Positions 98 through 41,939 of a stretch of DNA of 64,000 bases are shown here, one piece after another. Source of the DNA: Escherichia phage EK5; the sequence record PQ805429.1. One strand, 5' to 3'. The position numbers and the translations under genes were made by a program. Within the stretch, counting starts at the first letter, position 1; the number at the start of each line of letters is the position of its first letter. Below the pieces are notes generated by a model that was given only the letters and a program-made list of their open reading frames with translations, searched no databases and was not told where the DNA came from.

Positions 98-631
98 ATG
101 AGTTTACTAGGAAGTATTGAACTGCATGATGTAATTGACAATGGCTATCTGGATGCGGAGCATAAGTATGTTAACGCTGCTAGTGTGGATATCCGTATTG
201 GTGATACTATCCTTGTTGAAGAACAGGCTGATGGCATCGTTGATATTGATGCGAAAGAGAATCTTCAGTGGAAGGAAGTAAAGATTCCTGAAGAGGGTTT
301 GGTTATCACTCCGGGTCAGTTCTTCTTGGCTCACTCTATGGAGGAGTTTAATCTTCCAGATAACATCTCAAGTCTGTTTGTTCTGCGTTCGTCTATGGCT
401 CGTTGTGGTTTGAACCACCTTCACGCCGGTTGGGCAGATGCAGGATTTAATAGTAGTAAGCTGACATTTGAATTCCATAACGTAACCAAGCACCACAGCT
501 TACGAGTTCGTGCTGGTATGCGTGTTGGTCAGATGGTTATGTTTGAGCACTCTCATGCAGGGGAACATTCCTACGCAGTGAAGGGTCGTTATAATAACTC
601 TGAAGGTGTGGTTGCATCTAAAGGTGTGTAA
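98..631 (+). CDS. dcd: dCTP deaminase (dCTP deaminase/dUTPase superfamily)
   Basis: 177 aa; motifs RSSMARCGL, DAGFN, LEFHN, RAGMRVGQ and a C-terminal YxVKGRYNN stretch resemble E. coli Dcd; RBS AAGGAA upstream. Confidence 0.75.
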   Translation: MSLLGSIELHDVIDNGYLDAEHKYVNAASVDIRIGDTILVEEQADGIVDIDAKENLQWKEVKIPEEGLVITPGQFFLAHSMEEFNLPDNISSLFVLRSSMARCGLNHLHAGWADAGFNSSKLTFEFHNVTKHHSLRVRAGMRVGQMVMFEHSHAGEHSYAVKGRYNNSEGVVASKGV

Positions 632-829
632 ATGAAAAAGTGGATTGTTCGTGTACATGATAACACGACTGGAGAGTTAGTAGCTGTAGATTTTGTTAAG
701 ACTCGAGAACACGCACGTAGGGTCAAAAATCAATACAAGTCTACTTTTAGACTTAATAAGGTTACACTAGGAAAAGCTATCGTGAATAGTGAAGGTGCTT
801 TTTGTGTCAACAGTAAGGTTTATTACTAA
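632..829 (+). CDS. small protein, tandem paralog 1 of 3 (ends KVYY)
   Basis: 65 aa; start overlaps preceding stop; shares W..(R/K)EAR..KK...G..V.S...KV(Y/H)Y pattern with next two ORFs. Confidence 0.5.
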   Translation: MKKWIVRVHDNTTGELVAVDFVKTREHARRVKNQYKSTFRLNKVTLGKAIVNSEGAFCVNSKVYY

Positions 830-1038
830 TGAGACCAATCACTATGAGAAAATTCTGGTTAGCGAAGATTAAGTGGGCATCAGGTGGTATGACTATGACT
901 GCACTCCCTACTCGTCAACAAGCTCGAGATTTTAAAAAGACTATGCTTACTGGTGACGTGGTTAATAGTATCAGCATCCATAAGGCCAAGGAGTATTCTT
1001 CTGGTCGTGTTTATATCAGCGGAAAGGTACATTACTAA
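829..1038 (+). CDS. small protein, tandem paralog 2 of 3 (ends KVHY)
   Basis: 69 aa; TAATG stop/start overlap; paralog pattern as above. Confidence 0.5.
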   Translation: MRPITMRKFWLAKIKWASGGMTMTALPTRQQARDFKKTMLTGDVVNSISIHKAKEYSSGRVYISGKVHY

Positions 1039-1247
1039 TGAAAAAGATGTGGGCTATTCATGTTGTTTGGGATCTTGAGCAACACATGAGAAAAGATAAC
1101 ATCAAATTGTTTGATACTCGCAAAGAGGCTCGTATTGCTAAGAAACAGTTGAAGACTCTGGGCACAATAGTAAAAAGCGCTGACATACATCGCTGGTATG
1201 AAGACCCTAACACTGGTTCTTTTATGTCTAAAGTAATTTACTACTGA
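1038..1247 (+). CDS. small protein, tandem paralog 3 of 3 (ends KVIYY)
   Basis: 69 aa; TAATG overlap; paralog pattern as above. Confidence 0.5.
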   Translation: MKKMWAIHVVWDLEQHMRKDNIKLFDTRKEARIAKKQLKTLGTIVKSADIHRWYEDPNTGSFMSKVIYY

Positions 1248-1319
1248 TTGGTAGTAGATATGGTAACTCTCAAATGTATATAGAGTACAATAAGAATTTG
1301 TATTTTACAGGAGAGAGTT

Positions 1320-3403: not shown

Positions 3404-3652
3404 ATGGCTAGTAAAAGTATTTGGATTCTGAGTCGTGTTGAAGAGACAGACAGAGGGGAGTACACAGAAGTGCTTTGCTCTTTCATTACATACCCCACAA
3501 AACAACAGCTTGAAGATGCTGGAGTAGAAATAAATCTTTCTCAATCTCTTTTTGATAAAAAGGTTTCCAAGTCAACAGCCCCATTCTTTGGTTATTACTA
3601 CACACTTGATAGTTTGGAGCTACTGATGAATGATTCTTGTTTGGAGAATTAA
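3404..3652 (+). CDS. hypothetical protein
   Basis: 82 aa ORF, RBS GGAGAG upstream. Confidence 0.45.
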   Translation: MASKSIWILSRVEETDRGEYTEVLCSFITYPTKQQLEDAGVEINLSQSLFDKKVSKSTAPFFGYYYTLDSLELLMNDSCLEN

Positions 3653-3786
3653 TGTTGGAAGAAGATGACGATGTGTTCTGCACCAAGTGTGGGATGACAG
3701 TTGATGATGCATATGACCCAAGTGTAGAAATTTGTCCATGTTGCGGAGTATGTGAATATTGCTGTTCCCACAACTCAGAGGATTAG
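3652..3786 (+). CDS. small Cys-rich protein (putative zinc ribbon)
   Basis: 44 aa, CTKCG...CPCCGVCEYCC; start overlaps previous stop (TAATG). Confidence 0.35.
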   Translation: MLEEDDDVFCTKCGMTVDDAYDPSVEICPCCGVCEYCCSHNSED

Positions 3787-3798
3787 CAGGAATTCCTT

Positions 3799-4032
3799 AT
3801 GAAGATAAAACATATTACAGATATTCAGGAGGCATTTAGAATGCTTCCTCGAAGAGAGAAAGATAAGATTAAGAAGCTTATTCAAGTCTATGGTCATACA
3901 TCTGAAGGTGATGTAGATTATATGCCTGCCACTTTTAGAGAATGCGGAATTGCTCGTAATTTCACATTTGATCGTAAAGTGTTTCAGCAATTCGTTGACC
4001 ACTGGAGAAAAGATGGAAAAGAAAGTCTGTAG
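3799..4032 (+). CDS. hypothetical protein
   Basis: 77 aa ORF. Confidence 0.4.
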   Translation: MKIKHITDIQEAFRMLPRREKDKIKKLIQVYGHTSEGDVDYMPATFRECGIARNFTFDRKVFQQFVDHWRKDGKESL

Positions 4033-4198
4033 CTTCTGTAATAAAGAGAAGACTGTCGCCAACTTTAAACCTAATCCTGTAACTGGTCTGACCCATGTCA
4101 TGTGCCACTCTTGCAGGATATATCTTGAAACAAAACACACTATCAATAGATTGCATTATTATCACCCAACAACATTCAAATTTAAGGTTGTGAAATGA
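4013..4198 (+). CDS. small Cys-rich protein (CxxC...CxxC)
   Basis: Start moved to ATG 4013; CSFCNKEK...CHSCRIY. Confidence 0.4.
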   Translation: MEKKVCSFCNKEKTVANFKPNPVTGLTHVMCHSCRIYLETKHTINRLHYYHPTTFKFKVVK

Positions 4199-4524
4199 TT
4201 GACAGTAATACATTTAGGACTTCAAATGGAAGTGAAATAAGTCCCGCTGAAGTAATCAATCGGCATAGAAGGCAATTGATCATCCATTCCTATTTGTATT
4301 ACTGGTTGGATGACCCTATCTGGTCTGATGATAAATGGCAACAAGTTGCTAATGATCTAGTGGAGCTGCAAGCTCTGTATCCAGAGCCTACCGGAGTCTT
4401 TGACAATGAGTTCAAAGATTGGGATGGTTCTACAGGAATGCATCTCCCACACAATGAGGCTGTTGCTTGTATGGCGACAGCTGTTTACAGGATTCATAAA
4501 GATATGAACCATGAAGTGCTCTAA
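4195..4524 (+). CDS. hypothetical protein with NAD-ligase domain-Ia-like motif
   Basis: 109 aa; HSYLYYWLDDPIWSDDKWQQVANDLVELQALYPEP resembles the LigA N-terminal Ia pattern [29 protein letters not shown]..HPE. Confidence 0.4.
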   Translation: MIDSNTFRTSNGSEISPAEVINRHRRQLIIHSYLYYWLDDPIWSDDKWQQVANDLVELQALYPEPTGVFDNEFKDWDGSTGMHLPHNEAVACMATAVYRIHKDMNHEVL

Positions 4525-40880: not shown

Positions 40881-41939
40881 TTACGCCGCCACCTTTCCCG
40901 CAGCAGTGAACAGAACGCCAGAAGCATACGGGTTGCGGTGACGCAGACCAACTTCCATTTCAATCATCCACTTCTCGTAAGAACCATCTTTAGCCAGTTC
41001 AGTACGTTTCGGAGCACGCAGAACCATCTGAGTCCAGTCAGCGCTACGGAAGAAGTAAACTGCATCGGTAGGCATCCAACGGTTAACGATGATTTTGTAG
41101 CTCTGGCCCAGCGGGTCAGTGATGCTGTTAACTTCGTAGATGAACTGCTTGGTGTTCTCAAAGATACGCTTACGTGAACCCTGAGTATTTTCTTGCAGAC
41201 CAGCAAAGATCTTAGCATGAGCCGGGTTAATCATGATGATATCTGCTTCAGAACCAGCGGTATACAGTTGCAGAGTCATATCAAAGATATCAGCTTCGTC
41301 GAAACCAATGTTAGTGGTCGGGTTAGAAGCATTCTGTGCAACTTTAACAGTTACTGCACCAGTGTCCGGGTCAGCAGGACCATTCTTGGTCTTGTCAACA
41401 ACGCCACCAGCCAGACCACCGTGAGCACACAGGAACTGGAATGCACCAGTCTTACGAGCTGCATGGGTGTCATTCAGACCAACAACAGCAGGATCAGTTG
41501 CAGAGTTAGTCAGATACTGGTCAGCCAGAACGTCGGTACGAGCCTGACCGGACAGAAGGATTTTCTCGAGGTCACGCTTGATCTCTTTACCTTTCTTCTC
41601 CAGCTGATACATCAGTTCACGACCACGACCGTAGTTAGCGGTGGTGTTAGCAGTATCAGAAACACGAACAACCTTACGCAGAATCTGAGTAACGTTAGAT
41701 TTGATAACAGTCGGTTTCATTTCACCGTCTTCAGCACGAGAGCCTTCGACGTGTGCGTTATTACCGTCAACGCTTGCCAGTGCATCGGTCTGCCAGCTAA
41801 AGATAGTCTGGTTGATAGACTCTTTACCGGTCATAGATACGAACGGGGTATCCTGAGGGGACAGAACAGAAATCCAGTTAGCAAAAGAAAGTTTTTTACC
41901 ATTCTGGTCATACGATACAAATAAAGTTGGATTAGCCAT
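40881..41939 (-). CDS. major capsid protein
   Basis: 352 aa; follows scaffold gene; strong RBS; strong terminator downstream. Confidence 0.65.
   Translation of the reverse strand: MANPTLFVSYDQNGKKLSFANWISVLSPQDTPFVSMTGKESINQTIFSWQTDALASVDGNNAHVEGSRAEDGEMKPTVIKSNVTQILRKVVRVSDTANTTANYGRGRELMYQLEKKGKEIKRDLEKILLSGQARTDVLADQYLTNSATDPAVVGLNDTHAARKTGAFQFLCAHGGLAGGVVDKTKNGPADPDTGAVTVKVAQNASNPTTNIGFDEADIFDMTLQLYTAGSEADIIMINPAHAKIFAGLQENTQGSRKRIFENTKQFIYEVNSITDPLGQSYKIIVNRWMPTDAVYFFRSADWTQMVLRAPKRTELAKDGSYEKWMIEMEVGLRHRNPYASGVLFTAAGKVAA
40893..40899 (-). other. candidate -1 ribosomal slippery heptamer G GGA AAG
   Basis: In capsid zero frame as G|GGA|AAG, five codons before stop; -1 frame continues KGGGVTVDSV into the Ig-like ORF. 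Confidence 0.5.

Follow-up and report, generated by a model that had tools for sequence, protein, structure and literature searches.

Three small basic proteins encoded behind the dCTP deaminase gene of a phiEco32-like phage: probable members of an old, tandem-expanded family in apparently coupled early genes

Immediately behind the dCTP deaminase gene of Escherichia phage EK5 (PQ805429.1; the window, that is, the whole stretch of 64,000 nucleotides analysed here) lie three short open reading frames (ORFs) with overlapping stop and start codons. A first-pass annotation, made from the sequence alone, read them as translationally coupled paralogs born of a recent tandem triplication. Are these ORFs related genes, how old is their multiplication, and what might such an array contribute to the phage?

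Over positions 1-2400, the window shares 98.9% identity with Shigella phage ShigP1 and 96.5% with Escherichia phage phiEco32; by sequence, the source is a phiEco32-like podophage of the genus Kuravirus, subfamily Gordonclarkvirinae. The DNA of the trio is 93.5% identical to that of its phiEco32 counterparts phi32_71, phi32_70 and phi32_69 (hereafter gp71, gp70 and gp69), each of which is annotated as "hypothetical protein". These are thus known genes, recorded as hypothetical proteins in ~100 sequenced phages and grouped as one PHROG. The basic layout had been described correctly: three ORFs of 65-69 aa, all on the plus strand, follow one another straight after the dCTP deaminase gene (Table 1). 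Downstream, the trio is followed by the orthologue of gp68 (1320-1649) and then by a Dps/ferritin-like gene. The order dCTP deaminase gene (dcd) - trio slot - gp68/Dps-like is common to phiEco32, SU10, NJ01, KBNP1711, EP335, EK010, SU7, IME267, ES17 and LAMP and to the metagenomic contigs L021, L023 and L024.

Table 1. Features of the dCTP deaminase-gp69 region; positions are those of the window.
Feature	Position	Strand	Evidence
dCTP deaminase gene (orthologue of phiEco32 gp72, phi32_72)	98..631	+	Pfam PF22769 DCD, E 3.6e-34; phrog_1663
Family member 1, gp71 orthologue	632..829	+	65 aa, pI 10.1; phrog_4939, E 1.2e-27; dN/dS 0.11-0.30
Putative coupling junction 1	816..831	+	SD-like AAGGT in gp71 Lys-Val codons, 8 nt, then TAATG
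Family member 2, gp70 orthologue	829..1038	+	69 aa, pI 10.6; phrog_4939, E 3.6e-28; dN/dS 0.03-0.42
Putative coupling junction 2, GGAAAGGTACATTACTAATG	1022..1040	+	Synonymous sites near-invariant in every genus with downstream gp69
Family member 3, gp69 orthologue	1038..1247	+	69 aa, pI 9.8; phrog_4939, E 1.7e-28; dN/dS 0.11-0.46
Spacer after gp69	1248..1319	+	Candidate gp36-type promoter core AATGTATA at 1273-1280, upstream of the gp68 orthologue

Several features of the downstream genes deserve mention in their own right. The Dps/ferritin-like gene (1642-2205; Pfam Ferritin, E 2.6e-7) has orthologues labelled 'integrase' in several GenBank/RefSeq records (ES17, IME267, DE5, KM01 and others), which looks like a propagated annotation error. 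Its ATG, at 1642, falls within the last codons of gp68 (stop codon at 1647-1649), giving an 8-nt overlap, and gp68 and the Dps-like gene are probably another coupled pair. Directly 3' of the latter, a GC-rich hairpin of 11 pairs with a T-rich tail (2213-2241) forms, by its sequence, a terminator-like site within the middle gene block.

Pairwise alignment was used to assess the kinship of the three proteins. BLASTP detects significant similarity between gp71 and gp70 (25% identity, E 2e-5) and between gp70 and gp69 (28% identity, E 9e-6), whereas gp71 and gp69 taken alone reach only E 0.09. The same pattern is seen in Smith-Waterman scores compared with those of 5000 shuffled sequences: z is 8.8 for gp71/gp70 and 9.1 for gp70/gp69, with 0/5000 shuffles reaching the observed score in either case, and 1.9 for gp71/gp69, with 261/5000. 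Kinship of the latter two proteins nevertheless follows from gp70 as an intermediate, from shared membership in phrog_4939, and from a common predicted fold. The phrog_4939 matches of the trio cover 64-69 residues of the 67-position profile, and an HMM built here from 95 family members recognizes the three proteins with E-values of 5e-33 to 4e-28; in a six-frame scan of the 64-kb window, this HMM picked out exactly the trio, with no other match below E 0.8.

Might the resemblance be due to chance or composition, the ORFs being unrelated small genes or not genes at all? They are short, and the gp71/gp69 pair is non-significant by itself, but such a reading is contradicted by the shuffle tests of the other two pairs, by the matches of all three proteins to one PHROG at ~1e-28, by the topology predicted alike for gp69 and gp71 (pLDDT 86 and 93, respectively), and by purifying selection on all three genes (dN/dS 0.03-0.46, with dS up to >1). 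With the PHROG matches, shuffle tests and dN/dS ruling it out, its probability is negligible. By these sequence criteria, gp71, gp70 and gp69 are real genes, and their proposed status as tandem paralogs is upheld.

The motif by which the paralogs had originally been linked is roughly right: its 'REAR' element is exact in gp69 only (gp71 has REHAR and gp70 RQQAR), and the V(Y/H)Y terminus does not extend to gp69, which ends in IYY. The invariant core is better written as W...T-R-x-x-A-R-x-x-K followed by a C-terminal Y; among 41-47 diverse members, W and the two R residues are invariant and T, A, K and Y near-invariant. The W falls on strand 1 and T-R-x-x-A-R-x-x-K at the start of the helix of a beta-beta-alpha-beta-beta arrangement, which AlphaFold2 predicts for both gp69 and gp71. 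According to these models, four antiparallel strands form a sheet against which a single helix packs. The proteins are small (~7.5-8.3 kDa) and strongly basic (K+R 13-14 versus D+E 3-8).

The confidently predicted fold comes without an informative match. Foldseek against BFVD retrieved uncharacterised family members only (gp70-/gp71-type orthologues, TM 0.6-0.88), Pfam matched neither the trio nor 41 diverse members, and a PDB sequence profile search returned nothing but a bZIP basic region at E 1.1. No sequence or fold match to characterised DNA- or RNA-binding families was obtained. The trio belongs in phrog_4939, a family without assigned function, Pfam model or solved structure. A possible relative was DUF2188 (PF09954), small bacterial proteins of similar size labelled 'YdaT' by some, which share with the family a W-x-V first strand and, in the same register, a T-x-x-E-A helix start; hhalign superposes the two. 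For this comparison, a consensus sequence was confirmed as PF09954 (E 7e-32) and 117 real members were then profiled. Neither the R...R...KK basic stripe nor the C-terminal KV(Y/H)Y of the family is present in DUF2188, and membership was rejected at an hhalign probability of 3% and E 0.015 (a single comparison of sequence profiles only, over 30 columns); hmmscan of the 41-sequence set gave no PF09954 match at E up to 5.

The claim that the triplication is recent did not survive. A young origin, the copies having arisen by unequal crossing-over within this phage or among its near relatives, would be in keeping with tandem genes of near-equal size, with copy numbers that differ among relatives and with the sole DNA repeat of the array, a 39-nt 3'-end/junction segment (794-832 versus 1003-1041) that is 74% identical at a spacing of 209 nt. 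Outside this segment the copies have little in common as DNA: blastn finds no similarity between them, Tandem Repeats Finder reports no repeat, codon-aligned nucleotide identity is 44-61%, and identity at third codon positions is 36-43%. The proteins, as noted above, share 25-28% of their residues within one genome, versus 45-60% for orthologues from different genera. In a neighbour-joining tree of family members from 16 phages, sequences of Kuravirus, Nieuwekanaalvirus and Suseptimavirus fall in both the gp70 and the gp69 clade, and those of Kuravirus and Nieuwekanaalvirus in the gp71 clade; since each copy's clade spans genera, the duplications are older than the split of these genera. The copy-number differences, too, look like loss or replacement of old copies. 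A recent triplication in this window is hence ruled out by the third-position and blastn data together with the tree, and we give it hardly any weight; the triplication is ancient. Tandem copying would have expanded the family in the ancestor shared by the phiEco32-like phages (Gordonclarkvirinae).

Translational coupling, by contrast with the supposed youth of the array, is supported by the architecture of the junctions, which combine stop/start overlaps with SD-like AAGG elements. The TAA of the dCTP deaminase gene (629-631) abuts the first ATG (TAA-ATG at 629-634), with an SD-like AAAGGTG in the last codons of that gene, and one-base TAATG overlaps connect gp71 to gp70 (827-831) and gp70 to gp69 (1036-1040). 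Eight nucleotides upstream of each overlapping ATG, AAGGT is embedded in the conserved Lys-Val codons (AAG GTn). Junction 1 is conserved in phiEco32, SU10, NJ01, KBNP1711 and EP335. At the second junction, GGA AAG GTA/G CAT TAC TAATG is kept in all 10 of 10 loci with a downstream gp69, despite dS >1, and two loci in which gp70 comes last encode the same residues as GGA AAA GTT CAC TAC. This synonymous loss of AAGG where no gene follows gp70 lends indirect but specific support to coupling. The window's gp69, itself the last of the array, ends without an SD-like motif (AAA GTA ATT TAC TAC TGA). Some terminal gp69 genes of Suseptimaviruses keep AAGGT though no overlapping gene follows, so that its conservation must be partly a protein-level matter.

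Coupling of the trio is thus supported at the level of sequence. A ribosome finishing the upstream gene would restart on the next one by means of AAGG(T) and a TAA that overlaps or abuts the ATG. The arrangement resembles that of coupled overlapping genes in many phage and bacterial operons (ATGA/TAATG termination-reinitiation), with which the trio shares TAATG and an upstream SD-like element at normal spacing; it differs from ordinary termination-reinitiation pairs in that the family's own conserved C-terminal codons contain the putative signal. Each duplicated unit would consequently carry the restart signal of the next gene. In gp70, the start conserved throughout the family (MRKFW) corresponds to the second ATG, at 844, where the HMM match begins, and the phrog_4939 match spans residues 6-69; codons 829-843 encode MRPIT, a short N-terminal extension back to the overlapping start, which looks like a putative adaptor. 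In Suseptimaviruses, where no family gene precedes gp70, that gene begins directly with the conserved Met codon and is served by a GGAG of its own.

The array also appears to occupy a boundary of the transcription programme. In phiEco32, gp36-dependent promoters lie upstream of genes 6, 13, 26, 40, 58 and 68 (consensus tAATGTAtA), and that of gene 68 was located experimentally (PMC8948821). For SU10, homology to phiEco32 puts CDS 69-125 in the early class and CDS 25-68 in the middle class (PMC4281155). By motif match, AATGTATA in the spacer behind gp69 corresponds to the core of the consensus recognized by the phage sigma factor gp36; it occurs 7 times in the window versus 3.0 expected, consistent with the six published promoters. 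A scan for promoters and terminators found none inside the three-gene array, and an Rfam search of positions 1-2600 found no RNA family. The gp36-type core just downstream, taken with the early class of the SU10 genes, places the trio at the 3' end of an early unit, with gp69 as the predicted last gene of both the array and the early transcription unit. Overall, we consider it probable that the trio represents an old, lineage-specific family of basic proteins that was expanded in tandem, is encoded by the last early genes and is coupled by the design of its own sequences.

How constant is the array among relatives? Comparison of copy numbers, proposed together with the original description, gave 1 to 4 members per genome. 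A gp70-type gene was detected by tblastn in 98/98 related GenBank records and a gp71-type gene in 64 of the 98; a gp69-type gene is present in roughly at least 90 of 98, an estimate obtained from 112 matched records minus spurious low-scoring matches in unrelated phages. Hence, gp70 is the universal copy and gp71 an accessory one. Suseptimaviruses possess gp70 and gp69 only, and gp70 is the sole copy in LAMP and in one IMG/VR phage. In LAMP, the single copy (2002-2211 of locus L003) has a gp70 body and an end, TAC TGA followed by TTGGTAGTAGAT, as found in gp69 elsewhere. The sequence suggests deletion of gp69 by recombination between the conserved 3' ends of gp70 and gp69. In ES17, unrelated small ORFs and an HNH endonuclease occupy the place where gp71 normally sits; the HNH homing endonuclease gene (296-1343 of locus L016) directly follows, and overlaps, the end of the dCTP deaminase gene. 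The dcd-gp70 slot is an insertion hotspot. In SU10, KBNP1711, IME267 and ES17, the additional small ORFs that separate dcd from the array are not family members, nor is an acidic ORF in locus L011 (bit scores <0).

Members also occur outside the trio slot. NJ01, KBNP1711, ECBP2, EK010 and others have an extra, more distant member just after the thioredoxin gene, and members next to that gene lie around 3940-4510 in loci L007, L010, L009 and L005. The window has no such member: its thioredoxin gene (2455-2730) is directly followed by ThyX at 2746. The 71-kb metagenomic Logan contig L024 encodes four members in three slots (1877-2304, 3514-3714 and 4001-4225), including slots before and after the thioredoxin gene, with a very divergent allele in the gp69 slot, and metagenomic relatives of 82-90 kb have a single copy right after the deaminase gene. 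Salmonella phage 7-11 (NC_015938) encodes one member, an unannotated 73-aa ORF at 40945-41166 on the minus strand (HMM E 5e-5). This ORF shares 55 nt with the 3' end of the annotated gp055, where the RefSeq annotation may be wrong. An exhaustive profile search of 1.84 billion representative proteins returned 21 clusters only, all of 65-79 aa, and the distant clusters that could be placed (L021, L023 and L024) occupy the same syntenic slots on phiEco32-like contigs. The family is small and, among placed members, confined to this phage group. It reaches 7-11-, GAP52- and Aeromonas-type phages, and its core motif is invariant over the wide group that includes them.

The individual copies are exchanged independently between genera. 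In KBNP1711, for example, gp69 is 98.6% identical to that of the window, beside a gp70 at pN 0.29 from the window's, and the breakpoint of DNA similarity lies inside the conserved 3' end of gp70. In the genomes compared, gp71 and gp69 are dispensable or exchangeable. Such plasticity bears on whether the three proteins are subunits of one hetero-oligomer, the overlaps of their genes ensuring a fixed stoichiometry. In favour of a complex, translational coupling is a typical feature of subunit genes, and small domains made of a sheet and a helix, with one sheet face left open, often associate with a partner; nearly all Gordonclarkvirinae have, besides, conserved both the gp70-gp69 pair and its junction. 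On the other hand, one-copy and two-copy genomes exist, more than a third of the phages lack a gp71-type gene, copies are exchanged separately, as in KBNP1711, the allele in the gp69 slot of L024 is very divergent, and lone members stand beside the thioredoxin gene and in phage 7-11. An obligate complex is accordingly rather improbable, and independent action of the copies is favoured because one- and two-copy genomes exist and copies are exchanged separately.

What each copy might do is a more tentative matter. No paper on the function of gp69-71 was found, and a preprint on svsR and Kuravirus proved unrelated to these genes. We consider it possible, if somewhat short of an even chance, that each copy acts alone rather than in an obligate hetero-complex and binds a polyanion, most likely nucleic acid, early in infection. 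Polyanion binding is favoured by the strongly basic character of the proteins and by the placement of basic residues on one side of the helix and on strand 1. In gp69, helical periodicity puts R28, R32, K35 and K39 on one helix side, next to the packing face formed by A31, A34 and L38; R28, R32 and K35 are the conserved basic residues of the family core. K, R and H residues also line the outer face of strand 1. Such a basic face is deduced from sequences and predicted secondary structure rather than from a computed surface. The invariant T-R-x-x-A-R-x-x-K(K) helix start would form a basic binding ridge, and specificity for the target would come from the loops and the variable beta3-beta4 hairpin.

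The proteins could instead be diversified inhibitors for host takeover or anti-defence, a different host protein being targeted by each copy and an arms race having expanded and shuffled the family. Such a role would suit the early expression, the variable slot and the mosaic C-termini, as well as the strong resistance of Gordonclarkvirinae to restriction-modification, which, like their resistance to other defences, is unexplained, with no known mechanism (PMC11990801). Nevertheless, dN/dS is well below 1, the universal gp70 and a core invariant over a wide phage group fit a conserved housekeeping target better, and the fold matches to T4 Dmd, the phi29-type UDG inhibitor p56 and AcrIIC3 are at noise level, without sequence similarity to the trio. 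Moreover, known restriction and UDG inhibitors of such size are acidic DNA mimics, p56 among them, whereas the trio has a pI of ~10; membership in this class (Ugi/p56/Ocr type) was rejected on that ground. Ung inhibitors accompanying dU-containing DNA were rejected as well, the proteins being basic and the phage also encoding ThyX. Diversified inhibitors thus strike us as unlikely, and polyanion binding by independently acting copies as the better of these proposals.

The immediate value of these observations is modest: they describe an ordinary orphan family, specific to its lineage, whose expression architecture is neat. Added here are the old age of the triplication; the distinction between a universal gp70 and dispensable or exchangeable gp71 and gp69; an argument for coupling drawn from a natural experiment, with the candidate restart signal inside the conserved C-terminus; the extension of the family to more distant phage types and thioredoxin-adjacent slots; and a confident, if purely predicted, fold. 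E. coli K-12 in which O-antigen expression has been restored is a host of the Kuravirus isolates Bas89-91 of the BASEL collection, whose early genes are essentially uncharacterised. A bolder reading, which we put forward as a long shot, is that the array is a cassette aiding the defence resistance of Gordonclarkvirinae through early protectors or inhibitors that bind polyanions, with gp70 as its core, gp71, gp69 and the thioredoxin-adjacent copies as diversified variants, and C-terminal codons that double as restart signal. If this were true, new copies would be expressed as soon as they were duplicated or swapped in.
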